Virus record (IMG/VR): IMGVR_UViG_3300045988_127716
Coordinates: 30,446 to 94,445 of that record
DNA length: 64,000 nucleotides
From: a virus
Direction: 5' to 3' (one strand)
Position 1 is the first letter of the stretch; every line of letters begins with the position of its first letter. The notes beneath the pieces are model-generated. The model was not told where the DNA came from. It searched no databases and worked only from the letters and a program-made list of their open reading frames with translations. Of this stretch, positions 13,072 through 42,751 are shown in pieces. The translations under genes were made by a program, and so were the position numbers.

Positions 13072-13214
13072 GTAATGATTGATGATTATGATATATGCTC
13101 AAAGGTAGAAGTGGAAACACTTGCTATCTATATTTAAATACTCCTATTCATTAGGGAATACTCAGGTTCGAATCCTGAAAGGAGTACTATTTATAACATT
13201 AAATATTAAATATT

Positions 13215-17272: not shown

Positions 17273-17302
17273 CAAAAGTCACTTACAATACTGCATATTT
17301 AA

Positions 17303-17373
17303 GAACGAATAGCTTAGCGGATAAAGCAATTATCTTCAAATAATAGTTCTGGGTTCGATTCCCAGTTTGTTTA
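17303..17373 (+). tRNA. tRNA, 71 nt, atypical anticodon arm; loop reads cttcaa(a) so candidate anticodon TCA (UGA-reading) or TTC
   Basis: Acceptor gaacgaa/tttgttt (two G-U pairs), D-arm gctt-agcggata-aagc, T-arm ctggg-ttcgatt-cccag. The anticodon stem attat/ataat is perfect only with a 6-nt loop; other registers give a 7- or 8-nt loop with a weaker stem. ACTTACAATA lies 13 nt upstream. Confidence 0.5.
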
Positions 17374-18116
17374 GTAAAATTAGTGACTATTTATATGGGC
17401 TAGTTCTGGCTTTGACAGGTGATTAGAACAGTATTAAGACATGTAGGAAGGCAGTTTCCTTATAAAGGCAAAACTAATAAATGCTAAAGGTAGAGTAATC
17501 TCCTTCTCTAGACCTGCAGCTATTGCAGCGTAAGAGTTGGGTTGTCAACTGACCTAGAAACAGAATAGTTGTAAATATTAAAAAAGGATTGTATTAATAT
17601 AAACAAACCAGAATCCTTGAACCTTAAAAGGTGACAGACCATTGGGTAATTCCATAGGAGCGCTGTTAGGTTTATGAAGTTTCCTTATTCTTTAAAAATA
17701 AGGTGGTGGAGTGGTAATCTACGGTTACCCCAAAGTTTGATAGTTTGTATATACTAGTCATTATAAATACATTGTATTTATTGCACTATTTTAAGAGTTC
17801 TAGTAAAACTATCTATAATTGATCTATGTGATTTATAGATCATAAACATGTATATCTTAATACTAAGTAAATTGTCTGGACCGGAGTTCGACTCTCCGCT
17901 AGTCCACGGGAACAAGTTAGATGTGCTCAGGGGGGATACCCTGAGGGTTAGATAGGGATGGAATCAGAAGTACTAGTCTCCTTCTAGATTGAACCAAGAA
18001 AAGAGTATATAAGCATAGTGGACGCACTAAATTTTGTGAAATTACTCCGCCAAAGAGATTTGGTCTAGTGGCATCTAACTTTTTAAAAATATTAACATTT
18101 TAAATAACAAAACAGT

Positions 18117-18563
18117 ATGGAAAGAATTAACTTCACAGAAGAGAACTTAGCTCAGCTAAAAGATCTTGCAGTAGAGTTCTTATTTAATAGAACTACATTT
18201 AATGGTCCTATGAGTACTCAATATGATGTAACTCAAGTGATACATGACACTACTATGAGTTCTTTAAAGTCTATGTTCAATAGCATTAAATCTGCAATAG
18301 ATAAGAAATCTAATGTAAGTAGATGGACTACTTCAGCTGCAGAACAGAAAGAATTGAAGATTCTTGAGGATAAGAAAGAGTTCTTAGACCTATTAATGGG
18401 ATATAAACTCTATCAAGCTCAGGAAGCTGAAGTTGCTAGAGAAGCAGAAGCTCTTAGAGCTGAGATTAAATCTCTTGAGGAAGATACAAAAACTCCTGAA
18501 GAGAAACTTAAAGAGAAGAAAGAAGCTTTATCTAAGTTAGAGAATTTCTTCAAAATGGTTTAG
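18117..18563 (+). CDS. coiled-coil protein
   Basis: 148 aa; the C-terminal half is heptad-like (AEVAREAEALRAEIKSLEEDTKTPEEKLKEKKEALSKLENF). Confidence 0.4.
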   Translation: MERINFTEENLAQLKDLAVEFLFNRTTFNGPMSTQYDVTQVIHDTTMSSLKSMFNSIKSAIDKKSNVSRWTTSAAEQKELKILEDKKEFLDLLMGYKLYQAQEAEVAREAEALRAEIKSLEEDTKTPEEKLKEKKEALSKLENFFKMV

Positions 18564-18711
18564 GTTTATAAAAACAGTAGCAAGATTATAGTTTACATTT
18601 CTTGCTACTGCATGTTACTTACAATCTAACAAAACTTGTCTGATCTGCAAGTAAAAAAGGATCTCCATAGCTATCATCTTTATTAATAATTAAGTTTAAC
18701 CAAGTAACATT

Positions 18712-20544
18712 ATGAAAGTAGAATTAAATAACAAAGAAACAAATCCTTTTTCTGGGTTAAGAAACTGTTTGAAGATTTTCAACAACGGTGGTCAAGGCAT
18801 CACATTAAGTCAAGATGATTTAAATAAAGCCTGGGAAGAGGTAAAAGATAGTAAAGAGAAGAAAGAGATGTTTTTCTCTCTATTATTCTCATTAGGAGAT
18901 ATTACTGCCAGACAACACAACATCTTTAGAGGTCAAAAAGTTGATTCTGGAGGTAATTCTCAAAGGGAAATCTTTTTCAATTGCATGGAGTGGATGAAAA
19001 AGAATATCCCAGATCAGTTCTTTAAATTCATGAAATCTCATTTATTTAATGAGTATACTTGTTTTGATAATCTATTTAGGAATAGAGTTCAAACTCAGGG
19101 TAAGAAGATTATATCTATTAAATCTGTGTTGAATACATCTGATAATAGATATTTCAATGAGTTATTAGATTACACTGAATCTATTATCAAAGGTAAAAAT
19201 CCTTATGACAAGATGCTTGTAGCTAAATTCTTAACTCTTCCTAGATTATCTCCAAGAAAAGAGCATAAACAAATGCTTCCTCAAACTAAAGAATTGATGA
19301 AAGCAAAGGCTAAATTCTTAGAAGAATTATCTAAGAGAATGAATTGGTCTTATAAAATTGAAGGAAATATACTAAACTTCAAAGGATATAGAGAGTGGAG
19401 GAAGGAATACAACTCTACATTAGAATCTGTTCTTTTCAGTACTGGAAAGATTAAAGATTTTGATGAAATTCAGTTCTTAGAATGGTTGGATAGAATCCCT
19501 GCGCAAGCTAGATTCAGAGTGAGAAACAGAATCATGTTTGAGAAAGAGGGGGTATTTAAATATCCTAAACTGAAAGAGTGGTATGAAAAGTGGGAGAAAT
19601 ACAAAGAAGAGAAACAGGCAGAGCAAAGAGTTCTTGAAGAGAAAGTTCGTCAAGGACAGGCTAGTGTAGAGGATAAAGTTAAATTGGAAAAGGTTAAAAA
19701 AGAAGCCAAGGTAACAGTTGGATCTACTAACTTCCAAGAACTTTATAAAGAGATCCTTAGTGGAAGGATTGATAAACTTAAATTGGAGTCTTTTGTGAAT
19801 AACAAAGTAAGTCTTCAATATAATAGTTTAGTGATTATTGATGACTCTGGATCTATGGGTGGTGCGCCTTTCAACTTTGCTAAATTTATTGCATCTGTTT
19901 GTCTTGTTAAAAATCCAGATGATGATGGAAGAAACCTTTTAGGATTCTTCAATTATGACTCTAGACTATATGGAAGTATGGATAGAGCTGGAAGTAAGAC
20001 TCCTAATAGCTTAATGAGATCAAGTGTGAAGAACATTGTTAAGAAACCTTTTGTAGATCCTCATAAGAGTTTCTATGAAAACTATCAAAACATTTCTTCA
20101 TTCTGCCAAGGTGTATTCCAAGGTGGAGGTACTAGAATAAATAGTATCCCAAAAGGATTTGCTGAACAAGCTAATAATAATCCTGTATTATTAGATGAAC
20201 TTATGCAATATCCAGTTTGGACAATTGTCTCAGATGGAGAATGGAATAATATGTATTCTCCAGAAGCTTCAATGAATGAATTCTTCAGAGATTGTGAGAA
20301 TCTTTTAGGATTTAGACCATTTATCATTGCGATAGATATTCAAAATCCTAATTGGGCACATCAGATATTTAAAGCTGATAGATTTACTGGTATAGATAAC
20401 ATGATCTATATTCCAAGTAACCCAGCTCAAATTGAGCAAATTCTTACAAATTTCAAGGACATTGAAATCTTTGATGTCTATACTCCGTTACTCTCTTTAT
20501 ACAGAAGTAATAGATATGATCTAGTAAGGGCTAATGTAATTTAG
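18712..20544 (+). CDS. vWA-domain protein with large N-terminal domain; hypothesised TROVE/Ro60 (Rsr)-like RNA-binding protein
   Basis: 610 aa. Clear MIDAS motif LVIIDDSGSMGG at about residue 377, the position of the vWA domain in Ro60. N-terminal segments LRNCLKIFNNGGQGITL and EMFFSLLFSLGDI recall Ro60 TROVE segments (…FL.FGSEGGTYY… and …PMLFALA…). Permuted tRNA-like ncRNA candidates lie immediately downstream. The vWA call is firm; the TROVE assignment is inference. Confidence 0.45.
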   Translation: MKVELNNKETNPFSGLRNCLKIFNNGGQGITLSQDDLNKAWEEVKDSKEKKEMFFSLLFSLGDITARQHNIFRGQKVDSGGNSQREIFFNCMEWMKKNIPDQFFKFMKSHLFNEYTCFDNLFRNRVQTQGKKIISIKSVLNTSDNRYFNELLDYTESIIKGKNPYDKMLVAKFLTLPRLSPRKEHKQMLPQTKELMKAKAKFLEELSKRMNWSYKIEGNILNFKGYREWRKEYNSTLESVLFSTGKIKDFDEIQFLEWLDRIPAQARFRVRNRIMFEKEGVFKYPKLKEWYEKWEKYKEEKQAEQRVLEEKVRQGQASVEDKVKLEKVKKEAKVTVGSTNFQELYKEILSGRIDKLKLESFVNNKVSLQYNSLVIIDDSGSMGGAPFNFAKFIASVCLVKNPDDDGRNLLGFFNYDSRLYGSMDRAGSKTPNSLMRSSVKNIVKKPFVDPHKSFYENYQNISSFCQGVFQGGGTRINSIPKGFAEQANNNPVLLDELMQYPVWTIVSDGEWNNMYSPEASMNEFFRDCENLLGFRPFIIAIDIQNPNWAHQIFKADRFTGIDNMIYIPSNPAQIEQILTNFKDIEIFDVYTPLLSLYRSNRYDLVRANVI

Positions 20545-20618
20545 TCCTTACTATTAAAATGACTCAATTATTATAAAAAACAATACAGATACTTACAATA
20601 TTATAAGAATCAATTTAT

Positions 20619-20674
20619 GCAGGTTCGACTCCTGTCTTTTGCATTGGCAGAAGTGGCGAAATTGGTATACGCAC
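20619..20674 (+). ncRNA. permuted tRNA-like module 1 (T-arm, then 3' acceptor strand, tetraloop, 5' acceptor strand, then D-arm); YrlA/Y-RNA-like candidate
   Basis: gcagg-ttcgact-cctgt T-arm (20619-20635). cttttgc-attg-gcagaag forms a 7-bp acceptor-like hairpin. Then tg-gcg-aaattggtata-cgc D-arm-like. ACTTACAATA lies 19 nt upstream. Confidence 0.45.
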
Positions 20675-20779
20675 TGGTCTGAAAAACTGGGGAATATAAT
20701 ATTCAATAGTATCTATTTATGACTTTTCTTTTCCTTGCATGATATATTGATACTTACAAGATCAGACAATCTGTAGGTC

Positions 20780-20837
20780 GAGGGTTCGAATCCTTCAAAT
20801 CGCGCGTTTTGCGAATTTAGCTCAGTAGGTTTAGAGC
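20780..20837 (+). ncRNA. permuted tRNA-like module 2 (T-arm, then acceptor-like hairpin, then canonical D-arm tagctcagtaggtttagagc)
   Basis: gaggg-ttcgaat-ccttc T-arm. aaatcgc-gcgtttt-gcgaatt hairpin with 6 of 7 pairs. Then ta-gctc-agtaggttta-gagc. ACTTACAAGA lies about 20 nt upstream. Confidence 0.45.
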
Positions 20838-20920
20838 AATAGACATTGAAGTATCATTCATATAAGAAAATAATGTTTAGAATAAAAATTATAAAGTCAC
20901 TTACAATATTATCATAATTC

Positions 20921-20994
20921 GTAGAAATAACTCAATAGGATAGAGTACAAAACTTATAATTTTGGTGTTCAGGGTTCAAGTCCCTGTTTTTACA
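20921..20994 (+). tRNA. tRNA-Ile(TAT)
   Basis: Acceptor gtagaaa/tttttac, D-arm actc/gagt, anticodon arm caaaa-ctTATaa-ttttg perfect, T-arm caggg-ttcaagt-ccctg. ACTTACAATA lies 15 nt upstream. Confidence 0.75.
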
Positions 20995-21031
20995 GTGTAA
21001 TTATTATAGTGACTAATTTTATATTTTAAGG

Positions 21032-21133
21032 GGATGGTTTATAACTATTAGTAAATTTATATTTACTTACAAAATCATAAACTGTATGGAAAAATTTACA
21101 CCACAAATGTAGATAAGCAGGTTCGAATCCTGC
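21032..21133 (+). ncRNA. tRNA-like element with ~30-nt insertion (perfect 7-bp long-range acceptor pairing ggggatg/catcccc about 95 nt apart)
   Basis: 5' strand at 21032-21038; T-arm gcagg-ttcgaat-cctgc then catcccc-g. The insertion contains the hairpin agtaaat-ttat-atttact followed by tacaaaatc (the ACTTACAAAATC motif). Confidence 0.4.
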
Positions 21134-21170
21134 CATCCCCGCAAAAGCTACTTACAATAAGATTTAAATT

Positions 21171-21243
21171 ATAACAATAGCTCAATAGGCTGAGCAAATT
21201 TCTGGGGAAAATTAGGTTGTAGGTTCAAGTCCTACTTGTTAAT
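21171..21243 (+). tRNA. tRNA-Pro(GGG)
   Basis: 73 nt. D-arm gctc-aataggct-gagc, anticodon arm aattt-ctGGGga-aaatt perfect, T-arm gtagg-ttcaagt-cctac. Acceptor ataacaa/ttgttaa has an A-A at position 1:72. Motif lies 21 nt upstream. Confidence 0.65.
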
Positions 21244-21277
21244 AAATTTAAAAGTAGCTATTTTTATGAATACTTAA

Positions 21278-21688
21278 TTGGACATTATGTATGATATTAA
21301 TAGAATGAAAGGAGATTTATATGTAAATCATTATCTCTATAAATCTCGTAATGAATACAATCAAATAATTGTATGTGAGATATATAGAGACATTCATGAA
21401 CATATAAATTTCACATTCTATATAACTAGCAAAAGAAAGAGGGGATTTCAAGAAGGAAAGATAACTGGTAAAGATGGAATAAAATCTTTAATATGGGCGA
21501 AAAATTGTCTATTAGATTTTATTAAATATGCTAAACATCATTATCCAAAAGATATTATTACAATTTGGGCGACAGATAAAAGAAGATATAAAGTATATGA
21601 GAGAAGTTTAATTCCATTAGGATTTAAGCATGCAAATGATAGATATAGACATTTTTATCTTAAACTTGATGAATATAGTATAGAATAA
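21278..21688 (+). CDS. hypothetical protein
   Basis: 136-aa ORF embedded in the tRNA island. Confidence 0.4.
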   Translation: MDIMYDINRMKGDLYVNHYLYKSRNEYNQIIVCEIYRDIHEHINFTFYITSKRKRGFQEGKITGKDGIKSLIWAKNCLLDFIKYAKHHYPKDIITIWATDKRRYKVYERSLIPLGFKHANDRYRHFYLKLDEYSIE

Positions 21689-21694
21689 TTAATA

Positions 21695-21808
21695 GGGGAG
21701 GTTGAAATGTTGGAATAAGAGTATCAGTTCATTGTGATACTTACAAAATCAAATTAATTTTCGAATAAATTTGGGTTTTATCTTAACGCAGGTTCGATTC
21801 CTGTCCTC
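21695..21808 (+). ncRNA. tRNA-like element with ~35-nt insertion (perfect 7-bp long-range acceptor pairing ggggagg/cctcccc); 3' part contains a Pro(TGG)-like anticodon arm
   Basis: 5' strand 21695-21701. Insertion has the hairpin agtatca-gttcattg-tgatact followed by tacaaaatc. Then ataaa-ttTGGgt-tttat arm, then T-arm gcagg-ttcgatt-cctgt, then cctcccc-a. Confidence 0.4.
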
Positions 21809-21854
21809 CCCACTACGTTTCGTAAGAGCAAATAGTCAGACACTTACAATACTA

Positions 21855-21927
21855 TAAATTGTAGCTCATTGGGTAGAGCATTTGATTTTTAATCAAAGGG
21901 TAATGGGTTCAAATCCCATCTTAGTGT
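21855..21927 (+). tRNA. tRNA-Lys(TTT), copy 1, with non-pairing acceptor stem as drawn
   Basis: Canonical D-arm tagctcattgggtagagca, anticodon arm tttga-ttTTTaa-tcaaa, T-arm atggg-ttcaaat-cccat. But the 5' strand taaattg does not pair with 3' cttagtg. Motif lies 4 nt upstream. Confidence 0.45.
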
Positions 21928-21939
21928 CTATTTTTAAAT

Positions 21940-22011: not shown

Positions 22012-22101
22012 CATTTATTCTTGTTTATTGTTCCATATGTGTTATTGAATGAGTGTATAGGTAGAAATACTTATACACTCTTTTTATTTAAAATTAGTTA
22101 T

Positions 22102-25737: not shown

Positions 25738-25905
25738 TAAATAGAACTATAAAAACTAGCAACTGTACTGATGAGAGTATGTACAGGACTTTTTAAGTCA
25801 AATCTCTCACTTTGGGGTCATAGTATAAAGGCTATTATACTAGATTATTTAATTTTTATAGGTATATAATTCAGATTGATTAGGATATACATAGATTACA
25901 ACATT

Positions 25906-25977
25906 GGGGGTATAGTATAGTGGTAATTATATTAGTTTTGCACATTAAAGACCTGAGTTCGATTCTCAGTACCTCCA
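25906..25977 (+). tRNA. tRNA-Ala(TGC)
   Basis: Acceptor gggggta/tacctcc (one G-U), anticodon arm ttagt-ttTGCac-attaa, T-arm ctgag-ttcgatt-ctcag. Confidence 0.7.
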
Positions 25978-26064
25978 CAAGTCTAGTATTTAAAAAAGTG
26001 TTGAATTTTGTTTGATTCGAACTAATATGTTCGTATATTTGCATATATCAAATGTGCGAATATT

Positions 26065-26634
26065 ATGAGCAAATATAATAAAGAAGAATTAGAAAATTTA
26101 ATACTTGACCAGAACTTATCATACGAAGCTATTGGAAGGATGTATGGAGTTACTGGTAATGCCATTAAGAAGGCAGCTACTAGATTAGGTATAAAATTAC
26201 CCTCAAGAAGGAAGATTAATCCTTGTGAGACATTTAACAAAGATAATTCTAAAGAAGTTAGACATTGCTTAAATTGTGATAAAGAGCTAGATTACAGTGC
26301 TAAGAAATTTTGCTCTCATGAATGCCAACAGGAGTATCAATATTTAACTTATATAGATAGATGGAAGAAAGGATTAGAAACAGGAACTAAAGGTTCTGAT
26401 GCAGTATCAAACTATCTTCGTAAATATTTATTTAATAAGTTTAATAACAAATGTTGTAAATGTCATTGGCTAGAAACTAATCCTTATAGTGGACTTATTC
26501 CTCTACAAGTACATCATAAAGATGGAAATTGCCTTAATAATAATGAAGATAATTTAGAATTATTATGTCCTAATTGTCATGCATTGACTGAAAATTATGG
26601 AAATTTAAATAAAAACTCAAAAAGAATTAGATAG
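26065..26634 (+). CDS. freestanding HNH homing endonuclease
   Basis: 189 aa. HTH-like N-terminus (…AIGRMYGVTGNAIKKAATRLGI…), C-terminal …CCKCHW…LQVHHKDGNCLNNNEDNLELLCPNCHALTE HNH motif. Between tRNA-Ala and an orphan T-arm fragment. Confidence 0.8.
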   Translation: MSKYNKEELENLILDQNLSYEAIGRMYGVTGNAIKKAATRLGIKLPSRRKINPCETFNKDNSKEVRHCLNCDKELDYSAKKFCSHECQQEYQYLTYIDRWKKGLETGTKGSDAVSNYLRKYLFNKFNNKCCKCHWLETNPYSGLIPLQVHHKDGNCLNNNEDNLELLCPNCHALTENYGNLNKNSKRIR

Positions 26635-26639
26635 TCTAA

Positions 26640-26670
26640 AGATCTGGGTTCGATTCCCAGTGATTCCACA
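26640..26670 (+). other. orphan tRNA 3' fragment (T-arm plus 3' acceptor strand) immediately after the HNH gene
   Basis: ctggg-ttcgatt-cccag then tgattcc-a-caa. No matching 5' half within 100 nt upstream (that stretch is HNH coding sequence). Resembles the 3' ends of the tRNAs at 17303 and 25906. Confidence 0.5.
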
Positions 26671-31091: not shown

Positions 31092-32918
31092 ATGGAAGGA
31101 TTAGATTTAAGTTCACTATTAATTGTAGCAGGAATTTTAGTTGTAGTAATTATTATTACTATCATTGCGGTTTTATCAAGATATAGGAAATGTCCTCCTG
31201 ATAAAATCTTAATAATTTATGGTAAATCTTCTAAGGATAAAGAAGGTAATAAGAAACCTTCTAAGGTTATTCATGGAGGATCTACATTTGTTTGGCCTTA
31301 TTTCCAAGGTTATACCACAATGTCCTTAATTCCAATTCAGTTTAAATGTACTATTGCTGATGCATTATCAAGTCAATATATTAGAGTAACTGTGCCTATT
31401 ACAGCTACAGTTGCTGTAAATTCTGAAGAACCATTTGTTCAAAATGCAGTGAGTAGATTGGCTGGATTGACTGAGGATACTATTATAGAAATGACTAGAG
31501 AAATTATCTATGGCCAATTTAGGGAAATTATTTCTAAATCTTCTATTGAACAGTTAAATGCTGACAGAGATGCTTTTAGAACTAACTGTGAGCAAAGTAT
31601 TGCTAGTGAGTTAAATAAACTAGGATTGAAACTTATCAATATTAACATTGTGGATATTCAAGATGAAGCTGGATATATTGCAAATATTGGTAAGAAAGAA
31701 GCAGCTAAGGCAGTTAATCAAGCTAAAGTAGAAACCGCAGAGGAAGACAAACAAGGAGCAACTAAGAGTGCTGAGATTGAAAAGGATAAAGCAACCCAAG
31801 TAGCAGAGACTGAGAAGAATAGAATTAGTATTTTAGCAGAAACTAAGAAAGAAGAAGCTATTAAGGTTGCAGAAACTGAGAAGAATAGAGTAAGTGCTCT
31901 AGCAGAGATTGAGAAGGAGAAAGCTACTCAAGTAGCAGAAGCTGATAGGATTAGAGAGACCACTGTGGCTGAAACCAAAGCTCAAGAAAGTGCAAGTATT
32001 GTACAATCTAAGAATAATGCAGCTGTAGAAATTGCTAAATCAGATGCAGAAAGGGAATCTAAACAAGTAGAGTTTGATAACTCTAAGGAAATTAAGATTG
32101 CCCAATCTAATTCTGAAATGGAAATTAGAAAAGCGGAAGCTGAGAAGAATGCAATGGTTGGGAAGAATGAGGCAATGAAAGCTGTTGCAACCTCTGAAGG
32201 AGAATTGAAAGTAACTGAAGCAGAAGCTGAGAGAAAAGCTAGAGAGGCTCAAGTAATTGCAGATGCTAAGGTTAAAGAAAGACAAGAGCTTCAACAAAAA
32301 GCTGTAGAAGAAGCTAGAGCACAAAAGGTTGAAACCCAGTTAAAAGCTGAAAAGATTGTTCCTGCAGAAATTGAGAAGGAGAAAGCTCGTCTTAATGCGG
32401 AGGCTTATCAGAATGAAGTAACTGGTAAAGCTAAAGCTGAAGCTGAGGCTATTAAACTCAAAGCAGAGGCAGAAGCAGCTGCAATTAGATTAAAACAAGA
32501 AGCAGAAGCAGCAGGTATTCAGGCTAAACTTGAAGCTGAGGCTGAGGGTAAGAGAAAGTCTGCATTGGCTGAGGCTGAGGGATTTAAGGCAACCATGGAA
32601 GCAGCTAAAGGAAATGAAACCTTAGCAATTCATTACAAGATGGTTACTCAATACAAAGAAATTGCTGGTGAGCAGGTTAAAGCATTTGAGAAGATGAACC
32701 TTGGAAATATCAATATCTTTGATACTGGTGATGGTAAAGGTGCTGGGAAGTTCATGAGAGATATTGTTAACACAGTTGCACCTGCAACTAGTGTGTTATC
32801 CGAAATGCCAGTAATTGGAAAAGCTGTAAAAGCATTAGAGAGTGCTTTGGATAAGAAGAATGAGAGTGGGAATGAAGAGGGAGATGTTAAATCTTCTGCT
32901 TTTGAAGAAGTAAAGTAA
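31092..32918 (+). CDS. SPFH/band-7 flotillin-like protein (YqiK/FloA-like) with long EA-rich coiled coil
   Basis: 608 aa. N-terminal TM (LLIVAGILVVVIIITIIAVL), SPFH-like domain (…KVIHGGSTFVWPYFQGYTTMSLIPIQF…IRVTVPITATVAV…), then about 300 aa of A/E/K-rich repeats (flotillin-type coiled coil). Confidence 0.65.
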   Translation: MEGLDLSSLLIVAGILVVVIIITIIAVLSRYRKCPPDKILIIYGKSSKDKEGNKKPSKVIHGGSTFVWPYFQGYTTMSLIPIQFKCTIADALSSQYIRVTVPITATVAVNSEEPFVQNAVSRLAGLTEDTIIEMTREIIYGQFREIISKSSIEQLNADRDAFRTNCEQSIASELNKLGLKLININIVDIQDEAGYIANIGKKEAAKAVNQAKVETAEEDKQGATKSAEIEKDKATQVAETEKNRISILAETKKEEAIKVAETEKNRVSALAEIEKEKATQVAEADRIRETTVAETKAQESASIVQSKNNAAVEIAKSDAERESKQVEFDNSKEIKIAQSNSEMEIRKAEAEKNAMVGKNEAMKAVATSEGELKVTEAEAERKAREAQVIADAKVKERQELQQKAVEEARAQKVETQLKAEKIVPAEIEKEKARLNAEAYQNEVTGKAKAEAEAIKLKAEAEAAAIRLKQEAEAAGIQAKLEAEAEGKRKSALAEAEGFKATMEAAKGNETLAIHYKMVTQYKEIAGEQVKAFEKMNLGNINIFDTGDGKGAGKFMRDIVNTVAPATSVLSEMPVIGKAVKALESALDKKNESGNEEGDVKSSAFEEVK

Positions 32919-33296: not shown

Positions 33297-33325
33297 AGAG
33301 GTTCGAATCCTCATTTAGTACAAAT
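33297..33325 (+). other. isolated tRNA T-arm-like element (gagg-ttcgaat-cctc) with 3' tail
   Basis: aaaagaggttcgaatcctcatttagtaca. No 5' half found upstream (the stretch is coding). Confidence 0.4.
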
Positions 33326-35119: not shown

Positions 35120-35357
35120 AAATGTAATTTGTATTATACTAACATTAATTGTAGTATGTGTAATAGTAGATGTGGTAGGGTATGAGTCTCAAATTAATCC
35201 CAGAGACATGGATATAACTCTTCTAATATCTTCAATGATATATAGCATCTCCATTGGTTTTATAACGGGTCATGTTTTGGGTTTTATAATTGCCATATTA
35301 GGAGGTAAGGATTACATATTTAAGAATAATAAATTTCAAATAATAGATAAAGAATGA
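35106..35357 (+). CDS. small membrane protein
   Basis: 83 aa, two or three TM helices. Confidence 0.35.
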   Translation: MKIFKNVICIILTLIVVCVIVDVVGYESQINPRDMDITLLISSMIYSISIGFITGHVLGFIIAILGGKDYIFKNNKFQIIDKE

Positions 35358-35857
35358 AAGGTGAATTAGTTATTGGAGCAATTGCAGGTGATATTCTGGG
35401 ATCTCCTTATGAAAGAAATGCAGTATATAATCCAGATGTAGATCTTACTGATGAACAAGATTTTACAGATGATTCTATATTAACTATCGCAACTATGGAA
35501 TGTATGCTTGATGATTCTGAGGAATTTGAAAAATATTACATGAAATGGGGAAGAAAATTTATAGGTGAATCTATATGGGGTAAAAATTTCTTTAAATGGT
35601 TACATGATGGAGATTGTAAGGCAATTAATCATTCATGGGGAAATGGATGTTTAATGAGAATTAGTCCTATAGCATACTTTCCTGGAACTGAAGAAGATTG
35701 TAAAAGATTAGCTATTTTATCTTGTCAATATACTCATAATTGTCCAGAGAGTTTCTTAGCCGCAATTGAGTATGTAGGATATTTATATAGATTTGGAACA
35801 TTGTCTAGTTATGGAAGTCTTTGTATTAAATTTGTGGAAAAATGTATGATTTCATAA
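35354..35857 (+). CDS. ADP-ribosylglycohydrolase (ARH/DraG-family)-like protein, short form or N-terminal portion
   Basis: 167 aa. VIGAIAGDILGSPYE matches the N-terminal signature of the ARH family (G.A.GD..G.P.E); FTDDSILT matches the second metal-site motif. Typical ARHs are about 300 aa, so this may be truncated. Confidence 0.5.
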   Translation: MKGELVIGAIAGDILGSPYERNAVYNPDVDLTDEQDFTDDSILTIATMECMLDDSEEFEKYYMKWGRKFIGESIWGKNFFKWLHDGDCKAINHSWGNGCLMRISPIAYFPGTEEDCKRLAILSCQYTHNCPESFLAAIEYVGYLYRFGTLSSYGSLCIKFVEKCMIS

Positions 35858-36276
35858 TTTATACAGATGGATCTTATAAATCATCTAGAAAGCAGGGAGG
35901 ATATAGTGTAGTAATATGTAACAACAATGAGGAGGTAATAAAAACTATCTTCAAAGGAGTTAAAAATACTACCAACAACAGAATGGAATTATCTGGATTT
36001 ATTTCAGCATTGGAAAACATTCCAAAGGGATCTAAAGTGAAAATAATATCTGATTCAGAATATGTCTTAAATCCTCTGACTAAAGGATGGTTGGATAAAT
36101 GGATAAAAGAAGATTTCAAGGACAAGAAAAATCCGGATTTGTGGAAGAAAGTTGCGGAATTATTACCTGATTATAATATAGAATTGGAATGGGTTAAAGG
36201 TCATGAAGATTCTAAATTAAATAATCTAGCTGATATGTTAGCACAACACGCTGGAGAAGTGGATTTAGATAATTAA
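35842..36276 (+). CDS. rnhA: ribonuclease HI
   Basis: 144 aa. IYTDGS, TNNRMELSGFISALE, SDSEYV, WVKGHEDSKLNNLADMLA align with the RNase H1 catalytic motifs of E. coli RnhA (DEDD residues). Confidence 0.85.
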   Translation: MYDFIIYTDGSYKSSRKQGGYSVVICNNNEEVIKTIFKGVKNTTNNRMELSGFISALENIPKGSKVKIISDSEYVLNPLTKGWLDKWIKEDFKDKKNPDLWKKVAELLPDYNIELEWVKGHEDSKLNNLADMLAQHAGEVDLDN

Positions 36277-40320: not shown

Positions 40321-40639
40321 ATGTGAATATTGCAGAAGTGTTAATGTATGTATAGATAGTCCTAACTGTAATACAACTGGACACTTTTGTACTAAATTAA
40401 ATAGATTAGTTTCTATTAATAAACCTGTTGACGAAGATTGTCCATTTTATTTTAATAAATATAGTTATAGGGAGTTAATCAATTTAAGAGATTCTTTAAT
40501 TTCAGAACTGTACAAAATTAGAGTTAAATGGCGCAAAGGAATTACTGTCACTTTAGAAGATTCACTATTTGCTCAGGATATCGAAGATACAATATACAAT
40601 GTATTTAATAAATTATTAGATAAACAAAATGGAGATTAA
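40304..40639 (+). CDS. Cys-rich small protein (possible zinc-binding)
   Basis: 111 aa with CEYC…C…C…C…C pattern in the first 50 residues. Confidence 0.35.
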   Translation: MNCVAECEYCRSVNVCIDSPNCNTTGHFCTKLNRLVSINKPVDEDCPFYFNKYSYRELINLRDSLISELYKIRVKWRKGITVTLEDSLFAQDIEDTIYNVFNKLLDKQNGD

Positions 40640-41798
40640 ATCAATTTTAGATACAGATCTATATAAATTCTCTGTATCATATGCTTATATGAGATTATTC
40701 CCAGACGCAATTGGAACATTTGAATTTGTAGATAGGAATAAATCTCATTATACAGAAGATGATCTGGATTATATAAATTATGAACTTGCAAATCTTTCTG
40801 CACTTAAATTAAGTGATAATGAAAAAAGATTTATGCAAGATAGATGTTACTTTATTCCAGACTACTATTTTGAATGGTTACAATCATTTAAATTTGATTG
40901 TAGAAATTTATCTATTTCCTTAGATGAAGAAAATCATCTTCATATAAAAGTTACAGATTATTTATATAAAGTAACTCTTTGGGAAATTCCAATTCTTGCA
41001 ATAGTTAGTAGAACCCAGCATAGAGAAGACAAATGGAATATAGATGATTTATATACTAGAACTAGTAATAAAGTACACAACCTTCCATATGAATTCAAAG
41101 TCGCCGATTTCGGAACCAGAAGAAGATTTAATTTTGAAGTTCAGTCAGAAGTGATTGATAAACTATTACATGACTGTCCTCAGAATTTTGTTGGAACATC
41201 CAATTGTTATATAGCTTATCTAAGAGATATTAAAATGATTGGAACTTTTCCTCATGAGTGGGTGATGTTTCATGGTGCTATGTATGGATATGATCAAGCT
41301 AACTATTTAGCTTTAGAGAATTGGGTTAATGTATATGATGGAGAATTAGGAATTGCTTTATCTGATACTTACACATCTGATGTGTTCTTTAGAAATTTCT
41401 CTAAGAAACATGCAAGATTATTTGATGGAGTAAGACAAGATTCTGGAGATCCATTTCAGTTTATTAATAAATGTATTGATAGGTATAGAGAATTAAATGT
41501 AGATCCTCTTACTAAGACTATTGTATTCTCTGATTCATTAGATTTCAAGAAAGCAGTTGATATATTTAATTGCTGTAAGGGAAGGATTAAATGTTCATTT
41601 GGAATTGGAACTAATTTAACTTGCGATTTAGAGGGAGTTAAACCTTCTAATATTGTGATGAAGTTAGTTTCTTGTCAGATGAATAGTAAACAACCTGTGA
41701 AGAAATGTATTAAACTATCTGATGTAGAAGGAAAACATATAGGTGATCCAGAAGAAGTAGCGTTAGCACAAATGATAATAAGTCAACATTATGAGTGA
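40629..41798 (+). CDS. pncB: nicotinate phosphoribosyltransferase (PncB-type, NAPRTase family)
   Basis: 389 aa. N-terminal ILDTDLYKFSVSYAYMRLFP resembles the PncB N-terminus (LLDTDAYKL…). Size fits PncB (about 400 aa) rather than NAMPT (about 480 aa). Adjacent to PncA. Confidence 0.65.
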   Translation: MEIKSILDTDLYKFSVSYAYMRLFPDAIGTFEFVDRNKSHYTEDDLDYINYELANLSALKLSDNEKRFMQDRCYFIPDYYFEWLQSFKFDCRNLSISLDEENHLHIKVTDYLYKVTLWEIPILAIVSRTQHREDKWNIDDLYTRTSNKVHNLPYEFKVADFGTRRRFNFEVQSEVIDKLLHDCPQNFVGTSNCYIAYLRDIKMIGTFPHEWVMFHGAMYGYDQANYLALENWVNVYDGELGIALSDTYTSDVFFRNFSKKHARLFDGVRQDSGDPFQFINKCIDRYRELNVDPLTKTIVFSDSLDFKKAVDIFNCCKGRIKCSFGIGTNLTCDLEGVKPSNIVMKLVSCQMNSKQPVKKCIKLSDVEGKHIGDPEEVALAQMIISQHYE

Positions 41799-42751
41799 AA
41801 TTAGAGAAATTAAAGAATGTTATGAATAGAGATTTAAATTATTCAAAAGTATTTGATACTTTAGTAAATGAAACTAAGAAATATCTTGAAGACCATAATT
41901 TACAAGCTATGGTTCTGGGCATTAGTGGTGGTATTGATTCTACTGTTACTGCTGCGATTTGTTCTGAAGTTAGTAAATGCACTGATATTCCATTGATTGG
42001 AAGAAGTCTTCCAATTAAAAACAAGGATGATGAATTTAATGTATCTAAGTTAGTTGGAGAAGCATTTTGTACTAATTTCCAAGTATGTAATCTTGACGAG
42101 AGTTTATTATACACTAAAGTATTACAAACTATAGAACACTTTGAAGGGGAGGGATCTATATCTAAAATAGCCAATGGAAATATTCAAGCTAGACTTAGGA
42201 TGATTTATCTTTATAATTTAGCATCAACTCATAATGGAATAGTAATATCTACTGATAATCAAACAGAATATCAGTTAGGATTCTGGACTTTACATGGTGA
42301 TGTTGGAGATTTTAACCCTCTATTTGGGTTATGGAAGACTGAGATATATGAGTTAGCTAAACAATTAGAGACTTGGTATGGTACAGAAGCAGAAGGAGCA
42401 GAAGAAGAATATTTTGTAGGGTGCTGTGAAAGAGAAAATGCCATTCATCAATCTATTAAACTCACTCCAACTGATGGACTTGGAATTAGTAATTCCGATT
42501 TAGATCAGATAGGAGCTAAATCTTATTCAGAAGTTGATGATATTTTACAGGAATTTGAGGCTTTTCAATACTTATATCCAAAACAACTTGCAGGAATGAC
42601 TTTAAAGGAAAAGGCTAAAGAGTTTTTGGATAATCAAGAAATGCTTTATATAGAGCCAGAAGTTATCGTTAAGGTAATTGATAGACACGTTAAATCAGAA
42701 TTCAAAAGAAAGAATCTTCCAATTTGTATAACTAGAGATAAGTATGAATAA
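41795..42751 (+). CDS. nadE: NH3-dependent NAD+ synthetase (NadE, PP-loop ATP pyrophosphatase)
   Basis: 318 aa. LGISGGIDSTVTAA is the SGGxDS PP-loop. NadE-like length and layout. Confidence 0.75.
   Translation: MKLEKLKNVMNRDLNYSKVFDTLVNETKKYLEDHNLQAMVLGISGGIDSTVTAAICSEVSKCTDIPLIGRSLPIKNKDDEFNVSKLVGEAFCTNFQVCNLDESLLYTKVLQTIEHFEGEGSISKIANGNIQARLRMIYLYNLASTHNGIVISTDNQTEYQLGFWTLHGDVGDFNPLFGLWKTEIYELAKQLETWYGTEAEGAEEEYFVGCCERENAIHQSIKLTPTDGLGISNSDLDQIGAKSYSEVDDILQEFEAFQYLYPKQLAGMTLKEKAKEFLDNQEMLYIEPEVIVKVIDRHVKSEFKRKNLPICITRDKYE

Follow-up and report, generated by a model that had tools for sequence, protein, structure and literature searches.

What kind of gene has the acceptor stem and the T arm of a transfer RNA (tRNA), together with an insertion of 40-46 nt in its D region? 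Two neighbouring loci raise this question in a 64,000-nt stretch of viral DNA (hereafter the window), positions 30,446-94,445 of the IMG/VR virus record IMGVR_UViG_3300045988_127716. The initial annotation offered three readings: tRNAs with an unusual intron or insertion, tRNA-derived non-coding RNAs (ncRNAs), or pseudogenes disrupted by a small repeated element. We found that both loci belong to a cluster of nine units that bear the same module and adjoin a conserved protein gene. Tentatively, with a probability of about 45%, we read them as tRNA-derived, Y-RNA-like ncRNAs of a crAss-like phage, with an RNA-level handle that would be bound by the 610-aa product of that gene. Of the three initial readings, tRNA-derived ncRNAs thus appear the best supported, given conservation with covariation, the non-decoder features of locus 1 and the position of the cluster beside the protein gene.

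Two tRNA-shaped loci that appear to be maintained as RNA genes

Both loci combine a 7-bp acceptor stem with a T arm whose loop reads GTTCRANYC, as in a canonical tRNA (Table 1). The perfect acceptor pairing and the T arm before its 3' strand had been described in the initial annotation and stand, with two corrections to locus 1, which had been placed at 21032-21133: the start was 2 nt late (it is 21030), and 21133 is the end of the T arm rather than of the 3' acceptor strand. Each insertion contains, as previously described, a hairpin of one common pattern, 7 bp of AGTNNNN/NNNNACT followed by TACAAAATC. Within locus 1 this module arm occupies the place of the D arm. Removal of one insertion from locus 2 leaves a nearly canonical tRNA, with D loop ATGTTGGAA, a gap of just 1 nt between acceptor and D stem, and anticodon loop TTTGGGT, in the Pro(TGG)-like arm that had already been recognized. 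Locus 1 minus its insertion is non-canonical. Its 7-bp anticodon-type stem, its loop CCACAAA with C at position 33 and its missing D arm are features of a non-decoder, and no single deletion yields a canonical tRNA. ARAGORN passes over both loci, and both stay below the gathering score (29 bits) of the Rfam tRNA model RF00005. Scanned in E-value mode, this model gives a partial match to locus 1 (16.7 bits, model positions 6-65) and no match to locus 2.

The long-range pairing is rare by chance. When an exact 7-nt partner was sought 40-260 nt upstream of the T arm, it occurred in 201 of 200,000 shuffles for locus 1 (0.10%) and in 466 of 200,000 for locus 2 (0.23%). Both loci also fold more stably than shuffled sequences (RNAfold z-scores of -4.43 and -2.67, respectively), and the minimum free energy structure of locus 1 (-29.9 kcal/mol) has exactly the helices listed for it in Table 1. 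Alignment of relatives bears out the complementarity (L-numbers are labels of viral loci compared with the window). The acceptor and T stems of locus 2 are 100% paired in eight homologues from other viral contigs, with 7 of 12 pairs changed on both sides, a level reached by 0 of 500 shuffles; its D stem covaries with that of L039 (TAGA/TCTG). For locus 1, the acceptor, 7-bp anticodon-type, inner hairpin and outer stems are all kept in L017 and L242 with all sequences different, and the stems are likewise kept in the homologue of L116. The relatives in which compensatory change has preserved the stems of both loci have a linked protein that is 58-68% identical. Based on the rare pairing, the folding z-scores and the covariation in relatives, both loci are, as far as sequence can tell, maintained RNA genes and products of neither chance nor decay.

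These results change two of the initial readings. The repeated element invoked by the pseudogene reading exists, but the disrupted pseudogene does not fit stems that evolve compensatorily, and we found three alleles with the insertion and none free of it. Similarly, the insertion proposed for an intron-containing tRNA is real and lies in the D region, but it matches no known intron class. The locus 2 homologue of L017 (2768-2903) and L242 (4610-4745) has two consecutive hairpins, AGTATTCATTAATACT (no TACAA) and then AGTATCTAAAGATACT plus TACAA, which lengthen the insertion by ~18 nt.

The module is a covarying helix with an unpaired TACAA

The window contains 12 copies of the motif ACTTACAA, where 3.2 would be expected. 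Nine of these are on the + strand at 17281-21849, in one 4.7-kb cluster (17.2-21.9 kb); the three minus-strand matches (15033, 46882 and 50297) are partner-less and at chance level. Each of the nine + strand sites has an exact 7-nt complement to its NNNNACT strand. In seven cases this complement, AGTNNNN, is found 81-117 nt downstream and the two strands bracket a cargo; in the other two (loci 1 and 2) it is just upstream and makes a local hairpin. This split, bracketing form of the module had gone unseen in the initial annotation, as had the permuted tRNA-like genes at 20587-20856. Loci 1 and 2 present this helix turned inside out, with a loop connecting its variable ends and the conserved ACU/AGU end with UACAA facing the tRNA body. 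In other words, the bracketed permuted unit and the interrupted unit appear from their sequences to be circular permutations of one fold.

Among viral loci recovered by a motif-plus-T-arm pattern, an exact downstream partner accompanies 112 of 304 sites, compared to 10 of 287 in a composition-matched control. In cellular genomes (120 loci) a downstream partner was found at 2 of 138 sites; we rejected these as single chance matches, CTTACAA being the anticodon loop of tRNA-Val(UAC). From 182 sites we derived the extended consensus A-A-G-W-Y-ACTTACAA-T-A, the conserved motif as RNA being (G)NYACUUACAA(U)A, and the 3' strand has the consensus A-AGT-R-W-C-T followed by a T-rich stretch. The cargo-proximal pairs are always ACU/AGU, with unpaired UACAA(U/A)A 3' of the ACU strand. 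The remaining positions take 28 different NNNN sequences, each with its exact complement, and the helix reaches 8 bp in half of the cases and is never longer. Every copy of the module is on the sense strand.

Orthologous units show compensatory change. The same permuted Phe-type unit is bracketed by AGCTACT/AGTAGCT in L068 and by AGTCACT/AGTGACT in L104. Similarly, the module in the mRNA leader of the protein gene reads CGTTACT/AGTAACG in L077 versus TGTTACT/AGTAACA elsewhere, a change that alters an amino acid because the 3' strand lies in codons 8-10 in orthologues; in L097 this strand is kept in a different reading frame. Since the halves of the helix covary rather than being conserved, and do so by compensatory changes in orthologues, the module most probably acts at the RNA level. 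The ratio of G-U to A-C mismatches, 18 to 6 (8 to 3 in the control), weakly favours RNA. The module begins ~10 nt past the preceding stop codon in L068 and L104, and thus there is little room for a separate promoter between the two. This short gap and the single strong terminator-like hairpin at 22051-22080, likely the end of the transcription unit that holds the cluster, fit a polycistronic RNA containing the module.

A variant module occurs in GC-richer environmental phage contigs (L062, L070, L071, L075, L085 and L090). It has a longer covarying hairpin, AAACTTGGA(N4)-loop-(N4)TCCCC, then ~12 nt and GCTTACAAAC, with nested helices and TTAC in an internal loop. Nearly identical ~60-nt copies of it interrupt different tRNAs (Gly, Arg) of one contig, L090. 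Separately, a tRNA-Cys(GCA) in L030 (3507-3629) has a 50-nt insertion after position 28 without ACTTACAA, deletion of which restores a perfect cloverleaf.

The module accompanies five kinds of cargo

The cargo may be an intact tRNA, a permuted tRNA-like RNA, an acceptor-less tRNA body, a mini anticodon stem-loop, or the 5' untranslated region (UTR) of the protein gene. Intact tRNAs are preceded by 9-20 nt of leader (UACAAUAnn) and followed by a trailer of 1-13 nt. Anticodon loops of 6 or 8 nt were found in 6 of 24 module-associated intact 'tRNAs' and in 0 of 113 other tRNAs of the same loci (p = 1.6e-5). One unit of the window (17277-17388) has tRNA-like cargo at 17303-17373 with a 6-nt anticodon loop.

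Permuted units follow the order T arm, 3' acceptor strand, linker of 1-14 nt, 5' acceptor strand, D arm and anticodon arm. The unit at 20587-20714 has its T arm at 20619-35, CTTTTGC (20636-42) as 3' acceptor strand, an A and the linker TTG, GCAGAAG (20647-53) as 5' acceptor strand, and then a D arm and an anticodon-type arm with loop CTGAAAA. RNAfold predicts for it the bracket helix, a second helix, the T arm, a closed acceptor stem and the anticodon arm. Its acceptor stem covaries among relatives, and its anticodon drifts among close ones (GAA, GAG in L116, CAA in L242). The second such unit, at 20748-20856, consists of a T arm (20780-96), AAATCGC+G (20797-804), a linker, GCGAATT (20811-17) and a D arm (20820-37), with 6 of 7 acceptor pairs. 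Across loci, we counted 30 permuted tRNA-like units with T arm, closed acceptor stem and D arm, versus 3 in the control. A leader-trailer helix of at least 7 bp lies at a fixed position in 10 of 24 permuted units. As a general feature, the second leader-trailer helix (P1) was rejected; it is present in some units only (3.57 observed versus 3.38 in the control).

The acceptor-less unit (21838-21929) has a D arm, a Lys(UUU)-type anticodon arm and a T arm at 21861-21920, and the bracket helix closes this body. Its Rfam tRNA match spans model positions 7-64 only and its RNAfold z-score is -3.39. The same architecture occurs in L242 with a different bracket, AGTCACT/AGTGACT. The smallest cargo, of 35-50 nt and seen in relatives, combines a small hairpin with a canonical anticodon stem-loop (Lys UUU, Asn GUU, Thr UGU or Ser GCU) and lacks a T arm and acceptor. 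Such mini bracketed units (40-66 nt; cargo hairpin GCNN..NNGC) occur in L003, L014, L019, L031, L033 and L039 and likewise in L058, L066, L068, L097, L099 and L104, some immediately 5' of an ordinary tRNA. They may be anticodon-stem-loop decoys. Finally, the 3' bracket of the mRNA-leader module ends 2 nt before the ATG of the open reading frame (ORF) at 18712.

At 21278-21688 the window has a 136-aa ORF without a family match, which is absent from the near-identical relative L116. In the tRNA-Pro(GGG) unit, the 3' bracket AGTAGCT is immediately followed by the start of this indel.

A conserved protein gene is linked to the module cluster

A homologue of the 610-aa protein is encoded in 19 of 25 motif-rich viral loci (36-100% identity), versus 1 of 84 motif-poor loci. 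All 19 share one order: a module in the 5' UTR of the gene and a module cluster directly downstream on the same strand. On this comparison of sequences, the genetic link between the cluster and the gene is firm. The protein has >1,200 homologues, and identity is 60-69% between phages with ~100-kb and ~185-kb contigs.

The N-terminal ~360 aa are all-alpha, followed from about residue 370 by a C-terminal vWA domain with the MIDAS residues DDSGSMSG ... GGGT ... SDGE. The family profile has 13 weak PDB matches, four of them to Ro60 orthologues, and these four align collinearly at the start of the vWA domain. The Pfam TROVE domain (PF05731) was undetected in the protein, sequence-level TROVE tests being negative or insignificant, and homology to Ro60 is suggestive only. 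In L001/L116, L104 and L052, the gene spans ~3 kb and its continuous match is limited to residues 1-508, which suggests an intron, intein or endonuclease insertion.

Is the module a retained handle or a removed insert?

We suggest that the module is a handle that would be bound by the product of the linked ORF, a vWA protein whose fold may resemble that of Ro60. Together they would form particles, a phage counterpart of Ro60/Rsr with its tRNA-mimicking Y RNAs (YrlA). The module strands would close the ends of the cargo RNA in the seven bracketed units, and at loci 1 and 2 the loop-capped helix would project from a tRNA-shaped body with free acceptor ends. Such a body could engage tRNA-recognizing factors, including processing or repair enzymes, exonucleases and host anticodon nucleases.

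Retention is favoured because the bracketing extends to intact tRNAs, mini stem-loops and an mRNA leader, and because of the odd-size anticodon loops and the drifting anticodon of the permuted unit. It is further favoured because locus 1 cannot become a canonical tRNA and the ordinary, motif-free tRNA set of the window is already full, and because the permuted T arm-acceptor-D arm architecture matches that described for YrlA. Counter to this, the module sequence ACUUACAA is unlike the known Ro-binding motif GNCGAAN0-1G/CGAA, and the Rfam YrlA model, with a threshold of 69 bits, scores only ~20. In addition, a perfect cloverleaf whose anticodon loop is normal emerges in many phages once a single insertion of 35-78 nt is deleted, which is the expectation for a spliced intron rather than for a retained handle. 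A ribosome would probably not tolerate an arm between anticodon-stem positions 28 and 29.

Alternatively, the module may be an intervening or processing element that is removed, in which case the loci would be true intron-containing tRNA genes. An endonuclease would recognize the helix and UACAA, a ligase would rejoin the flanks, and permuted genes would be circularized, after which RNase P and 3' processing would reopen them at the acceptor end, as a bacterial-virus analogue of the archaeal and algal bulge-helix-bulge (BHB) system. We consider this unlikely, while giving it serious weight. Judged by an explicit cloverleaf score (an all-single-deletion ARAGORN scan proved too permissive), one contiguous deletion restores Asn GUU, His GUG, Asp GUC, Gln UUG, Met CAU and Ile GAU tRNAs, and likewise Gly, Arg, Thr and other tRNAs; no single deletion does the same for locus 1. 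Often just one deletion works, exact to the nucleotide; the recurrent insertion points are after position 27-29 and within the D region, and the inferred introns tend to begin (T)TA, like the TAC of the motif. However, the distance from module to inferred exon boundary varies (3' side, 2-31 nt; 5' side, 4-12 nt), and therefore the helix alone cannot specify the cuts. Nor is there BHB geometry (two 3-nt bulges and a 4-bp helix) at the inferred junctions of the window or in 25 high-confidence cases. Exons change compensatorily while the insertion stays (L019 versus L031, and the locus 2 family), and one bracket type (for example AGACACT/AGTGTCT) is found on intact, interrupted and permuted genes, as expected if one machinery serves all. 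Yet splicing would be purposeless where the module brackets intact tRNAs, mini stem-loops and the mRNA leader, and neither an RNA ligase nor a splicing endonuclease was found among the ~56 ORFs of the 64-kb window (of a ~185-kb genome). The insertions have no Rfam match to group I or II introns at gathering or E-value settings, and measure 40-46 nt versus a ribozyme core of at least ~200 nt. The broader proposal, a Crassvirales RNA cut-and-rejoin or circularization system keyed to the 7-bp helix and UACAA that matures interrupted, split and permuted tRNA genes into working tRNAs, seems to us somewhat more doubtful again; the linked vWA protein would possibly catalyse or chaperone it.

It is improbable that ACTTACAAT is instead a phage promoter (with GATACT or TACAAT as a -10-like element) and that split tRNA genes assemble in trans. 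The motif does lie 4-17 nt 5' of intact tRNAs, and also 5' of 3' tRNA parts and of an ORF, and it is strictly strand-specific, but a promoter leaves unexplained why 7 nt in or upstream of the would-be -10 covary with a partner 30-250 nt downstream. No -35 or Bacteroidetes-type element is conserved, a sigma-70 scan showed no enrichment (2 of 9 sites score), and the motif is confined to the 4.7-kb cluster, being absent from the main tRNA array and, bar the three minus-strand matches, from the rest of the window. The T7 A1 promoter (sequence in 10.1101/2020.03.07.982082) has exactly GATACTTACA as its -10/discriminator, a similarity that we take as coincidence.

Very improbable is a mobile or recombinogenic DNA element (like a miniature inverted-repeat transposable element, IS200/IS605 or attC) with the loci as decaying pseudogenes, for although the hairpin is repeated, adjoins a TTAC-containing motif and has orphan and rearranged tRNA pieces nearby and homing-endonuclease ORFs in the tRNA region, its conserved bases face the cargo and its variable bases outward (the opposite of terminal inverted repeats), its halves covary instead of being conserved in sequence, the stems of both loci and the insertion persist in relatives as described above, and the gene-then-cluster order is fixed in 19 loci.

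Genomic setting and further tRNA-like fragments

The window is AT-rich phage DNA whose + strand carries 27 tRNAs called by ARAGORN and one transfer-messenger RNA (tmRNA). The family-A DNA polymerase encoded there shares ~50% identity with those of the crAss-like cr108_1, IAS virus and Kehishuvirus, and by sequence the source of the window appears to be a crAss-like gut phage. The 185-kb contig IMGVR_UViG_3300045988_116753 is a near-identical relative. Among GenBank phages we found no close relative of the locus, of a second motif-rich locus or of the 610-aa protein, and the tRNA region of the cultured phage crAss001 lacks the ACTTACAA motif and module. The spacer between tRNA-Lys and tRNA-Phe in crAss001 (L121, 4132-4301) contains an unannotated T-arm-like element, GGGAGTTCGAGTCTCTC, with tRNA-like flanks.

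The main tRNA array of the window, at 23.7-29.3 kb, is without the ACTTACAA motif. The tmRNA gene is unusually long (511 nt) and begins 9 nt past the 3' bracket of the first module unit. Surrounding ORFs (35354-36276, 40629-42751 and 31092-32918) encode ADP-ribosylglycohydrolase, RNase H, NAPRTase with NAD synthase, and an SPFH/flotillin protein, gene types for which a link to conflict or RNA repair has been discussed in jumbo phages (PMC7824862).

Other tRNA-like pieces lie outside the cluster. At 25814-25850 is a tRNA-like 5' part, GGGGTCA followed by a D arm (GTATAA..TTATAC). The GGGGTCA pairs 7/7 (two G-U) with TGATTCC after an orphan T arm at 26643-26659, and the ~780 nt between the two hold a tRNA-Ala (25906-25978) and an HNH endonuclease ORF (26065-26634). 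ARAGORN in intron mode joins 25814-26669 as a tRNA-Stop(tta), but the joined anticodon arm is non-canonical. This mode gave spurious long-range pairings, with one lead of interest only. A mini tRNA-like element at 13140-13186 has a 6-bp stem (ACTCCT/AGGAGT), a hairpin (ATTC..GAAT) and a T arm (TCAGG-TTCGAAT-CCTGA), without a D arm, anticodon arm or ACTTACAA. At 33297-33313, right after an ORF stop, is an orphan T arm, GAGG-TTCGAAT-CCTC, with no recognizable remainder of a tRNA.

Table 1. Features of the module cluster and its surroundings, in window coordinates
Feature	Position	Strand	Sequence, pairing or basis
tmRNA gene	17397-17907	+	Rfam 51.5 bits, just over threshold; ARAGORN tag VNIKKGLY*
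tRNA-like unit	17277-17388	+	5' bracket AGTCACT+TACAA 17277-88; 3' bracket AGTGACT 17382-88
mRNA-leader module	18613-18709	+	5' bracket TGTTACT+TACAA 18613-24; 3' bracket AGTAACA 18703-09
Conserved 610-aa protein ORF	18712-20544	+	candidate module partner, possibly Ro60/Rsr-like
Permuted tRNA-like unit	20587-20714	+	5' bracket AGATACT+TACAA 20587-98; 3' bracket AGTATCT 20708-14
Second permuted unit	20748-20856	+	5' bracket TGATACT+TACAA 20748-59; 3' bracket AGTATCA 20850-56
Bracketed intact tRNA-Ile(UAU), 20921-20994	20895-21014	+	5' bracket AGTCACT+TACAA 20895-906; 3' bracket AGTGACT 21008-14
Locus 1, tRNA-shaped RNA gene	21030-21141	+	sequence, RNAfold, relatives
Locus 1 acceptor	21030-36 / 21134-40	+	GGGGATG / CATCCCC, exact 7 bp
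Locus 1 module arm, outer stem	21037-42 / 21077-82	+	GTTTAT / ATAAAC
Locus 1 module arm, inner helix	21050-56 / 21061-67	+	AGTAAAT / ATTTACT, loop TTAT
Locus 1 motif, unpaired	21068-76	+	TACAAAATC, directly 3' of inner helix
Locus 1 linker	21083-93	+	contains GG
Locus 1 anticodon-type stem	21094-21114	+	7 bp, ATTTACA/TGTAGAT, loop CCACAAA
Locus 1 T arm	21117-33	+	GCAGG-TTCGAAT-CCTGC
Bracketed intact tRNA-Pro(GGG), 21171-21243	21146-21259	+	5' bracket AGCTACT+TACAA 21146-57; 3' bracket AGTAGCT 21253-59
Locus 2, tRNA-shaped RNA gene	21695-21812	+	sequence, RNAfold, relatives
Locus 2 acceptor	21695-21701 / 21805-11	+	GGGGAGG / CCTCCCC, exact 7 bp
Locus 2 D stem	21703-06 / 21760-63	+	TGAA / TTCG
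Locus 2 D loop	21707-15	+	ATGTTGGAA, includes GG
Locus 2 module helix, within D loop	21720-26 / 21735-41	+	AGTATCA / TGATACT, loop GTTCATTG
Locus 2 motif	21742-50	+	TACAAAATC, directly 3' of module helix
Locus 2 anticodon-type arm	21765-81	+	ATAAA-TTTGGGT-TTTAT; U33, UGG, G37
Locus 2 T arm	21788-21804	+	
Acceptor-less tRNA body	21838-21929	+	5' bracket AGACACT+TACAA 21838-49; 3' bracket AGTGTCT 21923-29
Intrinsic-terminator-like hairpin and T run, strong	22051-22080	+	3' of tRNA-Gln

Implications

A subset of crAss-like phages carries a class of tRNA-shaped genes that tRNA-calling tools miss or mis-call. The class spans interrupted, permuted, acceptor-less and mini stem-loop genes, all marked by one covarying RNA module and genetically locked to one highly conserved protein. 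If the analogy to Ro60 and Y RNA holds, RNA quality-control or repair particles would extend to the dominant order of gut phages, with a testable RNA-protein pair. If the module is excised, it would represent a new kind of tRNA gene processing in bacteria, and a true cut-and-rejoin system would be the first non-ribozyme tRNA splicing, with the first permuted tRNA genes, in the bacterial and phage world. Either reading bears on phage counter-defence against tRNA-targeting host nucleases and on the 'missing suppressor tRNAs' of recoded crAss-like phages (noted in PMC7886860).

Comparison with known systems

In the literature searched, we found no published description of the module, or of interrupted or permuted tRNA-like genes in crAss-like phages. 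Three known systems invite comparison. Permuted tmRNA genes that give two-piece RNAs occur in bacteria, and the tRNA-like domain of tmRNA shares with the loci a G-rich acceptor and a T arm, while normal D and anticodon arms are missing; the ends of locus 2 align to the Rfam tmRNA model at 20.4 bits, below its threshold of 47. In contrast to tmRNA, the loci lack a tag reading frame and pseudoknots, and a complete tmRNA is encoded elsewhere in the window.

Permuted, split and multi-intron tRNA genes that mature via BHB motifs are reportedly known from Cyanidioschyzon merolae (Soma 2007), from Nanoarchaeum and from Thermofilum (Chan 2011). As there, intact, interrupted and permuted tRNA genes all occur with one helix-based element, insertions lie in the D loop and at anticodon-stem positions 28-30, leader and trailer pair around permuted genes, and the 3' half stands 5' of the 5' half with complementary acceptor strands and a short linker (20587-20714 and 20748-20856). 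However, the 3-4-3 BHB geometry is absent here, no splicing endonuclease was found among the ORFs of the window, the distances between helix and junction vary, and the host of these genes is a bacterial virus.

The closest parallels are with YrlA and Ro60/Rsr. In 254 bacteria and 22 phages, YrlA Y RNAs lie no more than 4 kb from rsr and share its strand, and YrlA of M. smegmatis is cut by RNase P and has CCA added (PMC4201824; bioRxiv 10.1101/312249). A phage Ro60 binds two adjacent Y-like RNAs via a stem-bulge with CGAA, and the Ro60-Yrl pair of Thermus phage phiLo is a known phage case (PMC12135203). Here too, small RNAs are same-strand neighbours of a gene for a protein with a helical N-terminal part and a vWA/MIDAS domain. 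The 5' and 3' ends of the RNA form a stem with a short conserved motif on the 5' strand, and the bracketed permuted units have a tRNA-mimic domain in the order T arm, closed acceptor stem, D arm. Several RNAs occur per locus, in a family already known in phages.

The differences are also clear. The motif is ACUUACAA here and GNCGAAN0-1G/CGAA in YrlA, and Rfam YrlA (RF02553) scores 19.9-20 bits at 20747-20860 and 21758-21917, below its gathering score of 69. The end stem exits at the variable region, the D loop or the acceptor end, whereas in YrlA it takes the place of the anticodon arm, an arm usually kept here. Unlike in YrlA, the range of cargo extends to complete tRNAs, acceptor-less bodies, mini anticodon stem-loops and the leader of the protein's own mRNA, and the handle of loci 1 and 2 is an internal hairpin that leaves the acceptor ends free. 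The 610-aa protein, unlike Ro60/Rsr, is unrecognizable as TROVE by sequence. Taken together, the comparison suggests a system of tRNA-mimicking RNAs paired with a Ro60-type protein, although one set apart from YrlA at the sequence level by its motif, its Rfam score and its protein.

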